The notes under the pieces: model-generated | Seen by the model: the letters and a program-made list of their open reading frames with translations, nothing else | The model's database searches: none | Told to the model about the DNA's origin: nothing | NCBI GenBank assembly: GCA_965214255.1 | Contig: OZ243948.1 | Coordinates: 516,916-580,915 of the forward strand | Length of the DNA stretch: 64,000 nt | Direction of reading: 5' to 3' | Source of the DNA: Alphaproteobacteria bacterium | Lineage (GTDB): Bacteria; Pseudomonadota; Alphaproteobacteria; SMXP01 | Translations under genes and position numbers: made by a program | In this document: piece after piece, positions 8,980 through 62,836 of the stretch | Layout of the letters: the number at the start of each line of letters is the position of its first letter | Numbering within the stretch: position 1 is the first letter of the stretch

Positions 8980-10196
8980 ACATTCCACCAAGATCTTCGG
9001 ACTCGTCAAACCTCGACCGTAAAAGCAAAGTCCACATCATGCTGGTGGCAGGGGAACCTTCAAGTGACGCACTTGGAGCGCAATTGATGTCTGCGCTTCG
9101 TTTGTTGCACAGCGGCAATCTGGAATTTTCAGGTGTTGGCGGTCCTGCCATGTCGAAACAGGGTCTCAAGAGCCTCTTCAATTTCGATCAATTTGCACTT
9201 GTTGGAATCACACAAATCGTCCAGCGCGCTCCAACCCTGCTCAAAAGAATTCGAGAAATTACCGACTATGCTCTCGCGGCTACACCTGACGCCATCGTCT
9301 TGATTGACAGCAACGAGTTGAATCAGAGGATAGCGCAAAGGCTCAAAAGCAGGGGTTTTTTGCGTCCCATTGTTAAATTCGTGTCGCCGCAAATCTGGGG
9401 AAGCCGCCCGAACCGTGTTTTCAAAATTGCGCAAGTCTACGATCATATTTTGACTTTGTTGCCGTTCGAGCCTGCCTGCTACCAAAATACTTCTTTACTC
9501 GCTACATATGTCGGTCATCCCGTCACTGAACGCCGTCCCCAGCCAGGCAGTGGCGTCAACTTCCGTAAAGCCCACAACATTCCACATGATGAACTTCTGC
9601 TTGCCGTATTACCCGGTAGCCGCAGGAGTGAAATCAGACTTTTGTTACCGCTTTTTATGAAAACGGTCGAACTGCTGGCGCAAACGGTCCCCCAATTTGC
9701 AGTCGTCGTTCCGACCTTACCTTCTGTTCATGACAGAATTGTTGAAGTCCTAAAGACTTGGCCGGTCCAAGCAATAGTCGTGGTAACTGAAGAAGACAAA
9801 TATGCAGCGTTCGATGCATCAAATATAGCCCTGGCCGCTTCAGGCACGGTTACTCTAGAGCTTGCAATTGCTCAAGTACCCATGGTCGTTGGATACAAGA
9901 TAGACCGGCTGGGAGCGATGATCTTCCGCCGTCTAATCATGGTTCGTCACATTACAATGGCAAACCTTATTCTGGGGCAAGAAATCATTCCCGAGTTTTT
10001 GCAAGAAAAGTGTAAACCTGAACTCATGGCCAGTGCCTTAGTCAAGTTGATAGAGGATGATACGGTCCGTAACGAGCAACTCGCTGCATTTGACTCCGTC
10101 ATTAATGAACTAACGGTGGAGGGTGAAAAGCCAAGCGTAAGAGCCGCGAGAGCCGTATTGGAAATCGCCGGTGTCTCTATTGTGCAAGCTAGTTGA
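8976..10196 (+). CDS. lpxB: Lipid-A-disaccharide synthase
   Basis: 'IMLVAGEPSSDALGAQLM' glycosyltransferase family 19 N-terminus. The ATG at 8976 overlaps the lpxI TGA (ATGA coupling); an alternative start is the ATG at 9039. Confidence 0.9.
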   Translation: MNIPPRSSDSSNLDRKSKVHIMLVAGEPSSDALGAQLMSALRLLHSGNLEFSGVGGPAMSKQGLKSLFNFDQFALVGITQIVQRAPTLLKRIREITDYALAATPDAIVLIDSNELNQRIAQRLKSRGFLRPIVKFVSPQIWGSRPNRVFKIAQVYDHILTLLPFEPACYQNTSLLATYVGHPVTERRPQPGSGVNFRKAHNIPHDELLLAVLPGSRRSEIRLLLPLFMKTVELLAQTVPQFAVVVPTLPSVHDRIVEVLKTWPVQAIVVVTEEDKYAAFDASNIALAASGTVTLELAIAQVPMVVGYKIDRLGAMIFRRLIMVRHITMANLILGQEIIPEFLQEKCKPELMASALVKLIEDDTVRNEQLAAFDSVINELTVEGEKPSVRAARAVLEIAGVSIVQAS

Positions 10197-10235
10197 GCAA
10201 AAGGGGGCTTCCTTCTGCCTCAATTGATTCAAGGC

Positions 10236-11543
10236 TCACCTTTTGGATAGAGGCACGTACGCCCGCTGCTTCTCCCCGGTGTATATTTGTCTCGGGCGTC
10301 CGATTCGCTGATTGGGATCCTCGATCATTTCCTCCCATTGCGCTATCCAACCGACGGTTCGTGACAGTGCAAAAACAACGGTAAACATAGTTGTGGGAAA
10401 ACCCAATGCCTTCAGAGTAATCCCGGAGTAGAAGTCGATATTGGGATAGAGCTTTTTCTCGATGAAATACTCGTCTTTGAGCGCAATTTTTTCCAATTCC
10501 ATGGCGACTTCCAAAAGTGGGTCATCCTTTATGCCCAATTCTTCGAGGACTTCGTGACATGTTTGCTGCATTACCCGTGCTCTCGGGTCATAGTTTTTAT
10601 AGACCCGGTGGCCGAATCCCATGAGTCGGAAGGGATCGTCTTTATCCTTGGCACGGTTCACGAATTCGGGAATTCGATCAATACTGCCGATTTCTTTGAG
10701 CATATTCAGTGCGGCCTCGTTGGCACCACCATGAGCAGGTCCCCATAAGCAGGCAATGCCGGCAGCAATGCAAGCAAACGGATTGGCGCCCGATGAACCG
10801 GCCAAACGGACTGTTGACGTCGAAGCGTTTTGTTCATGATCGGCATGCAAAATGAATATGCGGTCCATTGCACGGGCTAGAATGCGGCTAGTTCTATAAT
10901 TTTCCGCGGGTACACCGAAGCACATGTTCAAGAAGTTCTCTGCATAGTCCAGGTTGTTTCTCGGATAAATAAAGGGTTGGCCAATTGAATATTTGAATGC
11001 CATCGCGGCGATTGTTGGCATCTTGGCAATCATTCGTCTGCATGCAATCATGCGCTGGCGCGAGTCTGAAATATCCGTTGAGTCGTGATAGAAGGCTGAT
11101 AAGGCCCCAACTACGCCAACCATAATGGCCATCGGATGCGCGTCACGTCGAAAACCTTTAAAGAAATTCGTCAATTGTTCGTGGACCATCGTGTGATGCG
11201 TGATGGCCTTTTCAAATTCTTCCATTTGTTGTGCGTTGGGCAACTGTCCGTAAAGGAGCAAATAGCACGTCTCTAGAAAGCTTCCCTGTTCGGCCAGTTC
11301 ATCAATAGGATATCCTCGATAAAGCAACACGCCGGCTTCGCCGTCGATAAACGTAATTGTGGATTCGCAGCTTGCCGTTGAAGTGAAGCCAGGGTCATAG
11401 GTGAAAGCGCCTGTTTCAGAGTACAATTTACGCACGTCAACGACGTCCGGCCCGAGGTTTCCTTGGAGAACGGGAAGTTTGATCTCCCTATCATCCAAAG
11501 TCAGTTTTGCGTTGCCGTCAAACGTTTTAGCTTTAACTGCCAT
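10236..11543 (-). CDS. gltA: Citrate synthase
   Basis: 435 aa containing '[14 protein letters not shown]' and other citrate synthase signature regions. Confidence 0.95.
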
Positions 11544-57007: not shown

Positions 57008-57673
57008 TCATCCAGTACGCGTCGTCTGACCGTCGCCGTCCGCCGCGTCCGTCGGGTCCTTAAGCGACGGCCAATCGCTGAACGGGAAGGGTTTGTCCTC
57101 CCTGTTGTAGGTCAGATACATAAGAATTTCATAAACGAAGGCGCTCAGGTTCCGCCCGAATGTGAGCAGGCGTCCGTTCGTCTTTCCCGACAGCGCCATC
57201 GAAATGAATTGAAAGACGATAACGGTGAAGACCAGCAACTCCGCGAGCCCCCAAACGATCATGAACAGCAGCATGTAAAGTCCGCGCAGCCACGTGCTGC
57301 GCTTCTTGATGCTGTCCTTGAGATTGGATCGAGTCTCTTCGTTGGTCATGGCCGCCTCCTCTGACTCCGGCACCGGTTCCGCTTCCAAGGCCGCTTGAGG
57401 CGCGGTCAATGGGCCTTCGGCTTCCGGGCCGCCTGCTTGTATTGATCCTTGGTGAAAATGTTTTGAAATCTGCCGGATCACTTCCTCATATCGAGCCTTT
57501 GTGAAAATGTGGCGGGATCCGCTTCCGCAGCGGATCCCCTCCTTACGCATCGCCCGCCGCGCTGTTTTGGGCGTCACCCCGAAATGCGCCGCGACGTCCT
57601 TGGGCGTGTAGAAATCTTTCATCGGGTCGTTCGTCATGGTCACCTCTGCTTCGGTCTCCGGAGCGGACGTCAT
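57008..57673 (-). CDS. Fusion protein: N-terminal excisionase/MerR-type HTH (HTH_17-like) plus C-terminal two-TM small membrane domain (DUF4389-like)
   Basis: 'FYTPKDVAAHFGVTPKTARRAMRKEGI' resembles excisionase-family HTH. The C-terminus has two hydrophobic helices ('LYMLLFMIVWGLAELLVFTVIVFQFI', 'LSAFVYEILMYL'). The start overlaps the stop of the upstream gene (ATGA). Confidence 0.55.
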   Translation of the reverse strand: MTSAPETEAEVTMTNDPMKDFYTPKDVAAHFGVTPKTARRAMRKEGIRCGSGSRHIFTKARYEEVIRQISKHFHQGSIQAGGPEAEGPLTAPQAALEAEPVPESEEAAMTNEETRSNLKDSIKKRSTWLRGLYMLLFMIVWGLAELLVFTVIVFQFISMALSGKTNGRLLTFGRNLSAFVYEILMYLTYNREDKPFPFSDWPSLKDPTDAADGDGQTTRTG

Positions 57674-58356
57674 GTCGCGACTTCATAGAATATGCGTTTC
57701 GACTTGTCTTTGCCGATAAATTTCGCGGTCATCTTTCGGGCGGTGTCCTTGGTCCGGATGTTGTCGCGAAAGTGGGCGTGAAACGCCGAGAGCGCCGCCA
57801 GCCTCTCGGGGTCCGACTCCGGCGCGCATCGAACGAGCCGGGAGAAATAGGCGTCGAGATAGTCCAGTCCGCAGCGGGTCAAATCGTCCAGACGGGCGCG
57901 CGGATTGACGCCGAACACCGTCGCCTCGTGCCGGTACTCTTCCATCCAGTCGGGATATTTCGTCTGCACCGCGAACGGCTCGTAACCCTCAAGTATGGGT
58001 TCGAGCGGCGCGACCCATCGCGCCCGATAGGCGTCGTCCCGGAACGGCGTGCACACGTTCAAATGACAGATGACCCGGCGCGGTATCATCAGATAGAACA
58101 GAAGAAAAATCGGCGCGGCGACGGTTTCCGGCGGATAGAAAATCATGTTGAGCGCGTCGAGCGGCGGGACTTTGAGGTCGAAGTGAAGCGCCGTCATTTT
58201 GGCCAGATGCTCGGACTTCCAGTTGCGCGCCGAGATCTTCACCATCCTCAGGAACGCGGAATTGTCCGATATGTCCGGGTCCAGCGCCACTTCGGTGAGC
58301 GGCGTGTACCGGTCCGCCTTGTCGATGATTTCCCGCATCCGGGCGGTCTGGTCCAT
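57670..58356 (-). CDS. Hypothetical protein with a divergent ferredoxin-dependent bilin reductase (PcyA/PebA/HY2, Fe_bilin_red)-like fold. The catalytic Asp position appears substituted.
   Basis: Three regions align to FDBR signatures as recalled from memory. 'KSEHLAKMTALHFDL...LDALNMIFYPPE..APIF' aligns with 'FRKMHLELAKV..LDILHCVMFPEP..LPLF'. 'ICHLNVCTP' aligns with 'SAAIADLSP'. C-terminal 'RDNIRTKDTARKMTAKFIG...RIFYEV' aligns with 'QKNDKTRRVLEKAFG...QVLFDV'. The start is uncertain; an alternative is the ATG at 58387-58389 or the track start at 58452. Confidence 0.4.
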   Translation of the reverse strand: MDQTARMREIIDKADRYTPLTEVALDPDISDNSAFLRMVKISARNWKSEHLAKMTALHFDLKVPPLDALNMIFYPPETVAAPIFLLFYLMIPRRVICHLNVCTPFRDDAYRARWVAPLEPILEGYEPFAVQTKYPDWMEEYRHEATVFGVNPRARLDDLTRCGLDYLDAYFSRLVRCAPESDPERLAALSAFHAHFRDNIRTKDTARKMTAKFIGKDKSKRIFYEVAT

Positions 58357-58375: not shown

Positions 58376-58600
58376 TCAAACCTCTTCATACAGGCCGCCG
58401 AGCAGTTGGCGATAATTATTCGTGTACGGACAATTCGCCGCCAGCGTCTCAAGCCGCGCTTCTATGTCGCGGTAGACGGTGCTTCGATCCACCTTGAGCG
58501 CCTCGGCGATCTGCCACACGCGCCAGCCCTTCAGCACGTGTTCCATGATCGCGTCGCGGCGTATCTCTCGAACTTGGCGGGCCGATACGGTTTGGGTCAT
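58376..58600 (-). CDS. Small stand-alone HTH protein (resolvase/HTH_7/HTH_23-type DNA-binding domain)
   Basis: 74 aa. 'GWRVWQIAEALKVDRSTVYRDIE' matches the resolvase-type HTH consensus (G...IA..L.VSRSTVYR). Located immediately downstream of the tandem repeat array. Confidence 0.55.
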   Translation of the reverse strand: MTQTVSARQVREIRRDAIMEHVLKGWRVWQIAEALKVDRSTVYRDIEARLETLAANCPYTNNYRQLLGGLYEEV

Positions 58601-58664
58601 GCGCGACAGTGTTGAGCGTCATGCGTCCGCGCGTCAAGGGGGAAGTGTCGCGGTTATTGCGGGG

Positions 58665-59200
58665 GTGTTTTGTCGCAGCCCTGGTCGCAAATCTGAACGG
58701 CGCTCGTCATGGCTAAACGCGCGCGATTCCGCCATGTTCAGGGGCAAACCGACTTTGCGACAGGGTTGCGCGTTGTCGCAGCCTATAGTCGCAAATCCGG
58801 ACGGCGCGCGACATCGCGAAAACGGCGCGATTCCGCCATGTTCGAGGGCAATTCGACTTTGCGACAGGGTTGCGCGTTGTCGCAGCCCATAGTCGCAAAT
58901 CCGGACAGCGCGCGACATCGCGAAAACGGCTCGAGTCCGCCATGTTCAGGGGCAAACCGACCTTGCGACAGGGTTGCGTGTTGTCGCAGCCCATAGTCGC
59001 AAATCCGGACGGCGCGAGTCATCGCGAAAACGGCGCGATTCCGCCCTGTTCAAGGGCAATCCGACCTTGCGACAGGGTTGCGCATTGTCGCAGTCAATAG
59101 TCGCAAGACCGGACCGCGCGCGGCATGGCTAAACGCGCGCGATTCCGCCCTGTTTGAGGGCAAACCGACTTTGCGACAGGGTCGCGCGTTGTCGCAGGTT
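58665..59200. repeat. Tandem array of about 5 copies of a 104-bp non-coding repeat, each carrying a TGCGACA-N11-TGTCGCA hairpin
   Basis: The motif 'TTGCGACAGGGTTGCG(C/T)' recurs at 58755, 58859, 58963, 59067 and 59171, an exact 104-bp period. Units 2-4 are near-identical. Units 1 and 5 share the variant 'CATGGCTAAACGCGCGCGATTCCGCC'. A period of 104 is not divisible by 3. Confidence 0.85.
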
Positions 59201-59344
59201 ATTTTCCGGACCGGCCACGCATTAGCGCGTCATCACATTCAAGGCTTGTGCGCGGATATCCTCGTTGGTATGCCAAGCACTGAAAGCCGCCGACCTGCCG
59301 CGCGGCCATGATGGGACGCAAGACTGGAGAAGAGACGACCGGCC

Positions 59345-61523
59345 GTGAACGTTCAAACGCACGAAAAACTGAAAGCCGGGATCTGGGACATCGCGAACCT
59401 GCTGCGCGGGCCGTACCGGCCTCCCCAGTACCGCCTGGTGATGCTTCCGATGGTCGTGCTCCGCCGGCTCGACTGCGTCCTGGAGTCGACCAAAGACGCG
59501 GTGCTGAAGCGCCGCGACGAACTCGAAGCGCAGTGCGTGCCCGAAGCCGCGATGGACAAACTGCTCGGCCAAGCCGCCGACCCGAAGCGCAAGCATCCGC
59601 TCTACAATATCAGCCCCTACACCTTCGCCCGCCTGCTCGGCGACGCCGAGAACATCGCGCCCAACCTCGCGGCCTACATCAACGGCTTCTCGCCGACCGC
59701 CCATTCCATCTTCGAGCGCTTCAAGTTCACCGATCAGATCGAGAAACTCGACGCGCACAACCGTCTCTTCACCGTGGTCAAGGCCATGGCCGGCGTCGAC
59801 CTTCACCCCGACCGGATCGACAACCTTCAGATGGGCTACCTGTTCGAGCATCTGGTGATGCGTTTCAACGAACAGGCCAACGAGGAAGCGGGAGACCACT
59901 TCACCCCGCGCGAGGTCATCCGCCTCATGGCCAACCTCATCTACACCGGCGAACCGGACGTCTACAAGCCCGGCATTTTCCGCAAAATCTACGATCCCGC
60001 GTGCGGGACCGGCGGCATGCTCTCGGAGTCCGAAAAACTGATCCGCGACCAGAACAAACATGCGAACCTCGCGCTCTACGGCCAGGAGTACAACGACGAG
60101 GCGTGGGCGATCTGCTGCGCGGACATGCTCATCAAGGACCAGGACACCGGCAACATCGTTCTCGGCGACACTCTGGGCGACGGCAAGACCGGAGACGACT
60201 TTGAGGGCTTCCATTATATGATGGCCAATCCGCCCTTCGGCGTCGAATGGAAGGCGCAGAAAGACACGGTCCGACGCGAGCACGAGACCTTGGGGCTCTC
60301 GGGCCGCTTCGGCGCCGGGCTGCCCGCCGTCGACGACGGCTCGCTGCTTTTCCTCCAGCACATGATCTCCAAGATGCACCCGTACAGGTGCGGGGGGGGG
60401 GCGTAGAGAGCAGCCCGGATCGAAGATCGCTATCGTCTTCAACGGCTCGCCTTTGTTTTCCGGCGACGCCGGATCGGGGCCGTCCGACATCCGCCGCTGG
60501 ATCGTAGAGAACGACTGGCTCGACGCCGTCGTCGCGCTGCCTGACCAGCTTTTCTACAACACCGGCATCTTCACCTATGTCTGGCTGGTGACCAACCGCA
60601 AGGCGCCGGAGCGGCGCGGCAAGGTGCAGCTTGTCGACGGCGCGCGCTTCTTCCGCAAGATGAAGAAGAGCCTCAACAACAAGCGCAACGAGATCGCCGA
60701 AGACCAGATCCGCCGCCTGACCCGCGTCTACGCCAACTTCGAAGACGGCGAGACCGCCGAAGTCCAGGTCGACGGCGAAACCGAGACCCGAGTCGTTTCC
60801 CGCGTCTTCGAGAACCGCGAGTTCGGGTTTCTCAAAATAACCGTCGAACGCCCCTTGCGCATGAACTTCGAGGCGTCGCCTGAGCGCATCGCCGGGCTCG
60901 ATGAGCTGACGGCCTTCGCCAACCTGGCGGCGTCGAAGAAACGCAAGGACGAGTCCGCCGCCGCGCGCGAAATCGCTGCGGGGCGAAAGCTGCAGGACGC
61001 CGTCCGCGCCCTGCTCTCGACGCTCGCCGAAAACGGACGATATATGGACCGGACGGCCTTCGACGCCGATCTGACGACGGCCGCCGAGCGCGCCGGCCTC
61101 AAGCTTCCCGCCCCGATCAGGAAAGCGGTCTTCGCGGCGCTTGGGCAGCGCGACCCGGACGCGGAGATCTGCCGCGACGGCGAAGGACGGCCGGAACCCG
61201 ACGGCGACCTCCGCGACAGCGAAAACATTCCCTTGCCGCCGGGAACGGAACTGCCCCTGCCCATGGACTTCGGGCCAGACCAGCCCAACGACCTGCTCGT
61301 CGAAGCGTTCCGGGACCATATCGACGCCTACATGGCGCGCGAGGTGCTGCCCCATATTCCCGACGCCTGGGTGGACTACGCCAAGACCAAAGTCGGTTAC
61401 GAAATCCCCATCAACCGGCATTTCCATGTCTACGAGCCGCCGCGCCCTATCGACGAGATCGAGACGGACATCGCCAAGCTCGAAGACGAGATCGCCGGGC
61501 TGTTGAAAGGGCTGAGGGCGTGA
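59345..61523 (+). CDS. hsdM: Type I restriction-modification system methyltransferase subunit HsdM, split into two frames at a G10 homopolymer (putative phase-variable gene)
   Basis: The N-terminal part (59345-60406) has the HsdM_N motif 'IWDIANLLRGPYRPPQYRLVMLPMVVLRRLD' and the 'NPPFG' catalytic motif. The C-terminal part (60453-61523 in the track, in frame from about 60402) has 'IVFNGSPLFSGDAGSGPSDIRRWIVENDWLDAVVALPDQLFYNTGI'. Removing one G from the tract fuses the parts. GTG start, SD 'GGAGAAGAG'. Confidence 0.85.
60392..60401 (+). repeat. Poly-G tract (G10) inside hsdM coding sequence; simple-sequence contingency locus
   Basis: The sequence reads 'gtgc' followed by ten G and then 'cgtag'. 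In the current frame it encodes 'CGGGA*'. With G9 it encodes 'CGGGRREQPGSKIAIVFNG...', which continues into the C-terminal HsdM domain. Confidence 0.8.
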
Positions 61524-62836
61524 CAGCCGAGTTCGAGCAGCGCTGGTTGAGCGATCTACAGCCCGACTGGACCGAGAGGCGGGCCGACTTTCTGTGCAAC
61601 CCTTACCGAGTGACAGTCGATCCCGAGATTTTTGGCGACGATCTAGTCGCGCACTACTCGATCCCGCAGGTTCAAAAGACCGGCGGACCGTTCATCGAAC
61701 CCGCAAGCGACATCGGCAGTACGAAATTACTTGTAACGGCACCCACCCTTCTGGTCTCGAAACTCAATCCAAGAAAGAAGACTATCTGCATCGCCGAACC
61801 CCACCCGGAGTATCCGACTCTTGCTTCGGGCGAGTTCGTCGCGATCATTTCCGACCAGATGGACCGTCGCTATGCTTACTATCTTTGGTGCAGCGAGAAG
61901 GTCACGGACCGGTTGTCCGCCATTGTTCAATCTGCCACCCGCTCGCACCAACGAGTGAACCCTGCCGACATCCAAAAGCTGCCGTGGAAATGGCCCCCGC
62001 TCGATATGCAGCGGCGCATCGCCGACTTTCTCGACGAAAAAACCTCGCGGATCGACGGACTGATCGAGAAGAAACGCGACCTTCTCGACCGGCTCGCCGA
62101 GAAACGCCAAGCCCTCATCACCCGCGCCGTCACCAGGGGCCTCGACCCCGACGCGCCGATGAAACCCTCCGGCATCGACTGGCTTGGCGACATCCCCGCG
62201 CATTGGAAGCGCATTCGTCTTCGCTGGCTATCCAGACGCTATGCCGGCGGAACCCCAAACACGAAGAACCCCGAATACTGGGACGGCGGCACCATACCTT
62301 GGCTCAAATCAGGGGCGGTGAACCAAGGCACCATTACCGAGCCTTCCGATCACATAACCGAACTGGCCTTGAAGGAATCCAGCGCGAAATGGATTCCTAA
62401 AGGCGCACTGGTGATGGCACTAGCCGGGCAAGGGAAGACCAAAGCAACTGTTGGTTTTCTTGGGATTCGGACAACGGGCAATCAATCGCTCGCCGCGATA
62501 GTCCCCGAGAAGATCGACGGCAAATACCTCTATTGGTGGCTGAGCAGTCAGTACCTCACGCTTCGCAATCTTTCGAGCCAAGATGGGCGCGACGGTTTGA
62601 ACCTGGATATGATTGGCAGCGTAGTTTGTCCGGTGCCCCCGCTCGATACGCAACGGCGCATCGCCGACTTTCTCGACGAAAAAACCGCACGGATCGACGA
62701 GACCGCAAAGCAGGTGCTCCGCTCGATCGAATATCTCTCGGAATACCGCTCGGCGCTGATCACGGCCGCCGTCACCGGCCAACTCGCGGCGGCGCAGACC
62801 GCCGACCTCGGCAACCTTTCCCCGCAGGGAGATTGA
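61520..62836 (+). CDS. hsdS: Type I restriction-modification system specificity subunit HsdS (two target-recognition domains)
   Basis: The conserved spacer repeats 'QRRIADFLDEKTSRIDGLIEKKRDLLDRLAEKRQALITRAVTRGLDP' and 'QRRIADFLDEKTARIDETAKQVLRSIEYLSEYRSALITAAVTGQL' flank two variable TRDs. The GTG start overlaps the hsdM stop (GTGA). Confidence 0.85.
   Translation: MTAEFEQRWLSDLQPDWTERRADFLCNPYRVTVDPEIFGDDLVAHYSIPQVQKTGGPFIEPASDIGSTKLLVTAPTLLVSKLNPRKKTICIAEPHPEYPTLASGEFVAIISDQMDRRYAYYLWCSEKVTDRLSAIVQSATRSHQRVNPADIQKLPWKWPPLDMQRRIADFLDEKTSRIDGLIEKKRDLLDRLAEKRQALITRAVTRGLDPDAPMKPSGIDWLGDIPAHWKRIRLRWLSRRYAGGTPNTKNPEYWDGGTIPWLKSGAVNQGTITEPSDHITELALKESSAKWIPKGALVMALAGQGKTKATVGFLGIRTTGNQSLAAIVPEKIDGKYLYWWLSSQYLTLRNLSSQDGRDGLNLDMIGSVVCPVPPLDTQRRIADFLDEKTARIDETAKQVLRSIEYLSEYRSALITAAVTGQLAAAQTADLGNLSPQGD

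Follow-up and report, generated by a model that had tools for sequence, protein, structure and literature searches.

The locus examined here raises a simple question: why does a tandem array of non-coding 104-bp repeats stand between a short gene for a helix-turn-helix (HTH) protein and a type I restriction-modification (R-M) operon? The array lies in a 64-kb stretch of alphaproteobacterial DNA, referred to below as the window. The reading that we tentatively prefer, at a probability of roughly 0.45, is that it may be a cis-acting region upstream of a phage-derived gene, offering multiple recognition sites (in a pac-like or operator-like manner) to the small-terminase-like HTH protein which that gene encodes.

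Anatomy of the repeat array

Tandem Repeats Finder identified 5.1 copies of a 104-bp unit at positions 58670-59197 of the window (87% matches; score 765). A 29-nt core, TTGCGACAGGGTTGCGCGTTGTCGCAGCC, recurs at positions 58755, 58859, 58963, 59067, and 59171 with 0-3 mismatches, while 0.00 matches were expected in shuffled sequence. Since the spacing of these cores is exactly 104 bp, the strict periodicity over five units described in the first-pass annotation is borne out, and so is the perfect 7-bp stem, which was found in all five cases. The array consists of the following parts:

58645..59199, no strand: tandem array (Tandem Repeats Finder, core pattern at exact 104-bp spacing, unit alignment)
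58645-58748: first array unit, its left third degenerate
58749-58852, 58853-58956, 58957-59060, 59061-59164: four full 104-bp units
59165-59199: terminal partial unit, ending in box1-N11-box2
58756-58780, 58860-58884, 58964-58988, 59068-59092, 59172-59196, no strand: five perfect 7-bp inverted repeats TGCGACA-N11-TGTCGCA
59172..59207, plus strand: last hairpin of the array followed by GGTTATTTTCC, terminator-like on this strand and at this array end only (from sequence)

Each internal inverted repeat is accompanied by a third box, GTCGCAA (GTCGCAAAT), located 7 nt past the second one. Read along the orientation of the HTH gene, the unit has the form TTTGCGAC-N5-CTGCGACAA-N10-TGTCGCAA, with three copies of a 7-8-bp TTGCGAC box, of which two are direct and one is inverted. 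Each unit also has a 13-nt inverted repeat, CCGACTTTGCGAC / GTCGCAAATCCGG, which competes with the 7-bp inverted repeat and is preferred by energy minimisation. The open reading frames that overlap the array are artefacts, as had been proposed: the period is not a multiple of 3, and their candidate ATG is replaced in several units.

The interior units had been taken for near-identical, but pairwise identity of the unit cores is only 82-92%. A variant segment shared by the outer units was correctly recognised: GGCTAAACGCGCGCG is common to the first (58645-58748) and fifth (59061-59164) units, and the three units between them carry CGCGAAAACGGCGCG. These two unit subtypes are old; they are also present, in other orders, in other strains, and again in the second locus described below.

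The GGTTATTTTCC end of the array is conserved in two related contigs, L002 and L005; the 11-nt loop of the last hairpin exceeds the rule of the terminator scanner. In the A/T periodicity of the array, the 10.4-bp band was not significant, and the top harmonic, at 9.45 bp, was spotted post hoc. A CRISPR array was considered and rejected: the whole 104-bp unit is conserved at 82-92%, with no unit-specific segment.

A truncated gene of a small-terminase-like family

The gene next to the array is the following:

58376..58600, minus strand: 74-aa ORF (Pfam HTH_23, phmmer, PHROGs, alignment, blastn/tblastn)

Pfam recognised the encoded protein as a generic HTH only (HTH_23, E 1.5e-6). An exhaustive phmmer search among 1.84 billion representatives revealed 25 relatives. 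The closest are P0052 (130 aa; 94% identical) and P0053 (222 aa; 75% identical), the others have about 130-210 aa, and the family as a whole spans about 130-240 aa. These relatives match phrog_645 of the PHROGs collection with E values of 2e-9 to 1e-27. The label 'Rnase E' of phrog_645 derives from a small number of phage records and is at odds with an HTH protein.

Codons 1-66 of the ORF (58402-58600) are homologous to the N-terminal HTH domain of this small-terminase-like family. The last 8 codons are flanking ancestral sequence; blastn and tblastn homology ends at 58402/58403. The window protein aligns to the HTH part only and is devoid of the conserved helical region QRQRI..L...WW.RA...A.D.V..L..REAKLLGLD.P. 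Thus, the protein described in the first-pass annotation as a resolvase-type HTH is instead the truncated N-terminal domain of a phage small-terminase-like family.

The AF2 model of one family member, P0061 (pLDDT 87.5), shows an HTH followed by a helical hairpin, with helices at residues 2-23, 28-35, and 39-56 and the hairpin at 58-82 and 86-103. The hallmarks of the small-terminase fold, namely an N-terminal HTH and an oligomerisation hairpin in a protein of about 100-250 aa, are present in the family, and the hairpin is missing from the window protein. Foldseek searches against viral models (BFVD) gave matches with E values of 5e-5 to 1e-3, several of which are named terminase small subunit (E 3e-4 to 9e-4). 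Foldseek revealed nothing significant in the PDB, where the best terminase was the G20C small terminase (4xvn_D, E 0.66), and a PDB profile search and NCBIfam returned generic HTH matches only.

On contigs L132 and L133, P0061 is encoded two genes upstream of the large terminase, with a ParB_N/methyltransferase gene between them and portal and Mu-F genes after them. The gene for P0065 (L134) lies directly upstream of the large terminase, with a 320-bp gap. In about 300 mycobacteriophages, the homologue does not adjoin the terminase and sits in the non-structural arm, and no large terminase gene is located next to the gene at either chromosomal locus. The assignment by gene position comes from two metagenomic contigs, and we regard the family as small-terminase-like with moderate confidence. 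No array comparable to that of the window was found near the terS-like genes of the distant phage contigs. The independent phage contigs L132 (1-231) and L133 (1-256) each reach only about 230-255 bp upstream from the terS-like gene; the shared stop may be a genome end or an assembly break.

A second locus with a related array

A full-length paralogue of the HTH gene was found with a related array directly upstream, displaying the same TTGCGAC boxes and the same promoter-like junction between array and gene. We refer to this arrangement as locus B and to that of the window, L002, L005, and L003/L004 as locus A. Locus B is present in three assemblies:

L131: period 140, 2.9 copies at 9472-9880; locus 9472-10853
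L135: period 138, 2.9 copies at 9484-9880; locus 9484-10678
L136: contig begins inside the array; locus 1-1030

The paralogue has 222-225 aa as called and about 240 aa if translated from an upstream ATG. The product of the longer frame starts with MTQSVSAKQL, parallel to MTQTVSARQV in the window protein. Both paralogues have exactly the same predicted recognition helix, RSTVYRDI. A search of IMG/VR for proteins close to the paralogue found none, the single marginal match having a different architecture.

The neighbours of the two loci are otherwise different. Locus A is accompanied by vapBC and hsdMSR. In locus B, the neighbours are an Imm_superinfect gene, tRNA-Arg(CCG), and a different type I R-M system; the array is followed by the terS-like gene, the tRNA gene, and then, on the opposite strand, the R-M genes encoding a fused M+S protein (830 aa) and R (821 aa). 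Both loci are thus located beside type I R-M systems. Because array, gene, and junction are shared by two loci that differ in their surroundings, array and gene constitute one module. L005 (locus A) and L135 (locus B) originate from the same MAG, and the 2,787,154-bp contig that contains the window has a full-length paralogue on record as well, P0077 (202 aa), which lies beyond the window; accordingly, both loci occur in one genome.

The junction in the window comprises these elements:

58601..58653, minus strand: array-gene junction (sequence; comparison with L131, L135, and L136)
58632-58637: -35-like TTGACG
58610-58615: TCAACA, 16 nt downstream
58601-58607: box variant GTCGCGC, abutting the ATG
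58646-58653: box variant CCGCGACA, upstream of the -35-like element

From TTGACGCGC through to the ATG, the second locus has almost the same sequence, and the part common to both can be written as TTGACGCGC-N-CATGACGCTCAACACTGTCGCGCATG. A consensus promoter scan made no call in any locus, the junction included; the motifs listed above suggest that the junction may act as a promoter.

Between the loci, the 93-nt unit core shows about 84% identity, compared with 82% for the first 198 nt of the gene. Box3 (TTGCGAC), which was not used as an alignment anchor, shows no change in any of the 20 distinct units from the two loci, whereas the spacers are variable and the units otherwise differ by 8-24%. 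The fact that the spacers are as conserved as the gene could mean either that more than the short boxes is constrained or that the loci are simply young.

The extra length of the locus B units, about 36 nt, lies between box2 and box1 and widens the gap between the inverted-repeat arms from 11 nt to 46-47 nt. The 7-bp hairpin with an 11-nt loop, noted earlier in each unit, is therefore not conserved. The additional segment consists of a 7-8-bp GC hairpin followed by GATATTTGTC on the strand opposite the gene (L135, 9610-9629 and 9748-9767). These hairpins are terminator-like, but their count is within the shuffle range. In locus B, a perfect TATAAT precedes the first unit by about 25 nt.

Copy number among relatives and the border of the island

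The 74-aa protein, exact or 97% identical, is encoded with the same neighbours on four other assemblies, across which the HTH domain is 97-100% conserved. The check for length polymorphism suggested in the first-pass annotation revealed the following numbers of 104-bp units in locus A, of which those from short-read MAGs may be collapsed:

Window: 5.1 copies
L005 (NCBI MAG GCA_964347375.1): 4.1 copies
L002 (ENA metagenome contig): 3.1 copies
L003 and L004 (short-read contigs): at least 2.3 copies; both contigs stop inside the array

The array is therefore length-polymorphic between strains, and the occurrence of the unit subtypes in different orders in different strains fits unequal recombination. 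The repeats break assemblies, as seen in the three short-read contigs that end inside arrays (L003, L004, and L136).

Between the array and hsdM, the content of vapB and vapC genes (FitA-like RHH and PIN, respectively) also varies: both are present in L005 (8436-9113), vapB alone in L002 (9222-9464), and neither in the window (59200-59344). In L002 and L005, vapB has its own promoter-like sequence and a palindrome, downstream of the array. The comparison of these sequences suggests that vapBC of locus A is undergoing stepwise loss. The C-terminal tail of the HTH protein differs between strains as well (LLGGLYEEV versus LLGGPV), being altered by a 1-nt indel in L005.

A more distant relative, L127, carries a bilin-reductase-like neighbour that is 87% identical to that of the window. 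This contig contains no HTH gene, array, vapBC, hsdMSR, or SnoaL gene, and a TonB-dependent receptor gene directly adjoins the bilin-reductase-like gene; the missing island amounts to about 9 kb. The border and cargo of the island in the window are as follows:

58395..58402, no strand: island junction (homology to L127 stops near 58395; that to the full-length terS-like gene starts at 58402)
59345..62836, plus strand: type I R-M cargo, on the far side of the array from the HTH gene (Pfam; gene tables of L002 and L005)
59345-60406 and 60453-61523, plus strand: hsdM in two ORFs (N6_Mtase profile positions 6-175 and 194-279)
61520-62836, plus strand: hsdS; hsdR extends beyond 62836

The location of the array at an island border, considered in the first-pass annotation, is thus supported by the position at which homology to the island-free relative stops. 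From the two homology edges, it follows that the 74-aa ORF is composed of 66 codons of a longer gene and 8 flanking codons.

Some further features of the neighbourhood were recorded. L002 and L005 have hsdM in the same two-ORF arrangement, which is either a pseudogene common to these loci or a genuine split methylase. The bilin-reductase-like gene (PF05996, E 8e-14) and a DUF4389 gene (57008-58356, minus strand) form a conserved pair adjoining rlpA, and the DUF4389 gene has a weak, sub-threshold match to HTH_17. Homologues of the pair, 40-60% identical and including Oceanicoccus and Chromatiales proteins, are found in quite different contexts together with FGE-sulfatase and TonB_C genes. The G+C content of the window steps from about 0.50 (1-37000) to about 0.61 (38000-64000), which could reflect a chimeric assembly join or unusual heterogeneity. 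Housekeeping genes are present in both parts: dxr, bamA, lpxB, gltX, comEC, trpE, ppiD, eno, pdhB/C, and lpdA in the first; and hfq, hflX, holB, tmk, dacC, and rlpA in the second.

Distribution of the repeat unit

Within the 64-kb window, no copies of the unit occur outside the array, and all seven TTTGCGAC octamers fall inside it. Blastn searches with two units against 72,556 plasmids and with locus B against 50,697 phage records gave no match. A 20-base box pattern produced 0 matches in viral contigs (IMG/VR) and no true match in 185,579 genomes (one per species), where the single chance match is located in a coding sequence of Gemmatimonadaceae. With a looser box pattern, at least 120 single matches were obtained in JGI metagenomes, and the loci fetched were all unrelated by blastn.

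The array is real, lineage-restricted, and length-polymorphic. Dispersal at hundreds of sites, which would have marked the unit as the REP/RIME-like element considered in the first-pass annotation, was not found; the array is local. Like REP, BIME, and RIME elements, its units are GC-rich, hairpin-forming, and non-coding, and they include an imperfect palindrome capable of forming a hairpin. However, those elements are dispersed at tens to hundreds of sites, whereas the unit described here occurs, within the sequences covered, only in two arrays per genome, both linked to a gene, and is absent from the representative genomes. A dispersed element of this type was rejected on these grounds.

The loose pattern also gave 35-nt matches on many contigs of one sample series, Ga0056108 and Ga0056133-5 (L007, L015, L023, L032, L036, L046, L047, L055, L059, L075, L076, L081, and L084). 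These may represent an unrelated dispersed repeat of another organism.

What the array may be

Several explanations have to be weighed. The array could be a functionless relic, i.e., tandemly duplicated promoter-upstream DNA of a dead phage gene whose copy number drifts by unequal crossing-over. The state of locus A agrees well with this: the island border leaves only 66 codons of the gene, its C-terminal tail is frameshifted between strains, the adjacent vapBC is disappearing stepwise, copy number drifts among strains, and no phage genes are left nearby. Namely, neither a large terminase nor portal or other phage structural genes were detected in the window (52-64 kb), L002, L005, L131, L135, or L136. 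Pure relic status is a serious alternative for the window copy, but as an account of the array in general we consider it unlikely, given that an array also precedes the intact paralogue in three assemblies (with 2.9 copies in the two that span it), that the boxes are invariant in 20 distinct units otherwise 8-24% different, and that the HTH domain is 97-100% conserved. A somewhat smaller chance is given to structured RNA modules, either tandem small RNAs or a long repetitive leader made from one strand, in which the stem between box1 and box3 would be functional. Each unit folds into a 13-bp stem with further hairpins (z-scores between -1.1 and -3.9). When this stem is read on the HTH-gene strand, the positions that depart from Watson-Crick pairing are G-U, except for three sporadic end mismatches and an A-G at position 5, which recurs in 13 of 14 junctions; single C-G and U-A replacements occur. 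The additional 36 nt of locus B lie inside the loop and themselves form a GC hairpin, followed on the opposite strand by a terminator-like T-run, and the TATAAT before the first unit of locus B could likewise be fitted to transcription. The stem pair counts are, however, no better than in shuffled sequences, 243 to 370 of 500 of which reach the observed values, and in most units the third hairpin is disrupted by changes that are not compensated. No Rfam match was obtained for the region at E up to 10 or for the whole window at gathering scores. Consensus scans revealed no promoter-like site and no per-unit terminator in the window, the terminator-like sites of locus B do not exceed shuffle counts, and the evidence from G-U pairs and that from terminators favour opposite strands. 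The multi-copy small RNA locus listed among the roles in the first-pass annotation thus finds neither a family match, nor per-unit signals in the window, nor covariation above shuffles. In type III toxin-antitoxin systems, toxI-type repeat RNAs are encoded by a tandem non-coding repeat directly upstream of a protein gene. The array shares this layout with toxI and other tandem small RNAs, but its unit is three times longer, no terminator separates it from the gene, the protein is an HTH DNA binder rather than an endoribonuclease, and RNA structure is unsupported.

Control of the type I R-M and vapBC operon, with the 74-aa HTH protein as controller and copy number tuning expression, would suit the placement of the array between the HTH gene and the divergent vapBC-hsdMSR genes, the presence of type I R-M genes beside both arrays, and a weak PADLOC match of the paralogues to mad1 (E 1e-4). 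This explanation is possible for locus A but does not suit the layout of locus B, where the R-M genes are convergent with the HTH gene and lie past the tRNA gene, on the side away from the array. Moreover, vapB in L002 and L005 possesses a promoter-like sequence and palindrome of its own, and it is the start of the HTH gene, not hsd, to which the array is attached; we regard such a regulatory role as improbable. Still further down the scale, and in our opinion hardly credible, is a plasmid-type centromere, an iteron origin, or a locally amplified REP/RIME-type element. The hairpin-bearing, GC-rich units resemble REP elements, and tandem direct repeats that each contain an inverted repeat are reminiscent of sopC of plasmid F, which consists of 12 repeats, each 43 bp long and containing an inverted repeat to which SopB binds (PMC3177203). 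The repeats of sopC are bound by an HTH protein encoded next door (PMC3177203). In contrast to sopC, the array is accompanied by neither a partition ATPase nor a ParB-family protein, its unit measures 104-140 bp instead of 43 bp, and the spacing of its inverted-repeat arms is not conserved (11 nt in one locus and 46-47 nt in the other). According to Pfam and gene tables, neither the 52-64-kb part of the window nor the related loci contain a ParA, ParB, or Rep gene. Plasmid records gave no match, and no copy of the unit was found elsewhere in the window, in the 185,579 representative genomes, or in viral contigs.

A putative recognition region for the HTH protein

Among the roles listed in the first-pass annotation, binding sites for the adjacent HTH protein fit best, given that the paralogue gene is also preceded by a related array, placed in the same way with respect to the gene start. 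The layout suggests a tandem array of binding sites beside the gene for the protein that would bind them. Most likely, the HTH protein recognises the TTGCGAC boxes, and many copies of it would load along 300-550 bp of DNA, in the manner of a phage pac/cosB region or an autoregulatory operator cluster. Units would be gained and lost by unequal recombination. The event that created the island border has cut the window gene down to its HTH domain. Repeated short motifs at the 5' end of a small-terminase gene, as expected of a pac or cosB region, are found in both loci, provided that the gene is taken to be terS-like.

Among documented systems, the pac region of the Bacillus phages SPP1 and SF6 comes closest: sets of short direct repeats, three of them in SPP1, span the promoters and reach from upstream into the 5' end of the gene for an HTH-bearing small terminase (PMC4737164). 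About 100 bp of DNA have been proposed to wrap one terminase ring at SPP1 pac (PMC4737164). In the window, similarly, box-like sequences flank a promoter-like sequence and abut the start codon, and the unit measures 104 bp; there is no sequence similarity to SPP1. Unlike the SPP1/SF6 region, the array has its boxes in units of 104-140 bp that are repeated 3-5 times in tandem, and it is located in a chromosome, without a large terminase or phage structural genes and, in the window, next to a truncated gene. A simple box model is opposed by the conservation of the spacers, by the variation of about 36 bp in spacing, and by the absence of significant 10.4-bp phasing. The difference of about 36 bp in the box2-box1 distance between the loci argues specifically against a rigid dimer site.

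As the window gene is truncated to its HTH domain, the window array would be either decaying or still bound in trans, the candidate binders being the 74-aa fragment and the full-length paralogue P0077. Since the oligomerisation part is lost and no packaging genes are located nearby, the window copy is probably decaying or a mere binding sink for these two proteins.

One extension of the recognition-region reading, to which we attach little weight, is that protein and array together form a chromosomal packaging-initiation pad for a helper phage or gene transfer agent. Headful packaging would then start by the islands carrying type I R-M and toxin-antitoxin genes and spread them, with copy number setting the efficiency. 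Such a role would be comparable to lateral transduction and to the pac sites of phage satellites, and the location of both array loci beside type I R-M genes fits it without demonstrating it.

If the array is only a relic, it is ordinary decaying phage DNA, the main practical effect of which is broken short-read assemblies, as in three contigs examined here. If the boxes are bound, the locus would offer a natural case of a long, tandemly amplified recognition region for a terminase-like protein, kept in the chromosome as two paralogous copies beside defence islands. It would then also provide a simple system for studying how HTH proteins assembled into rings recognise repetitive DNA, and whether pac-like sites in a chromosome can mobilise the defence genes beside them.
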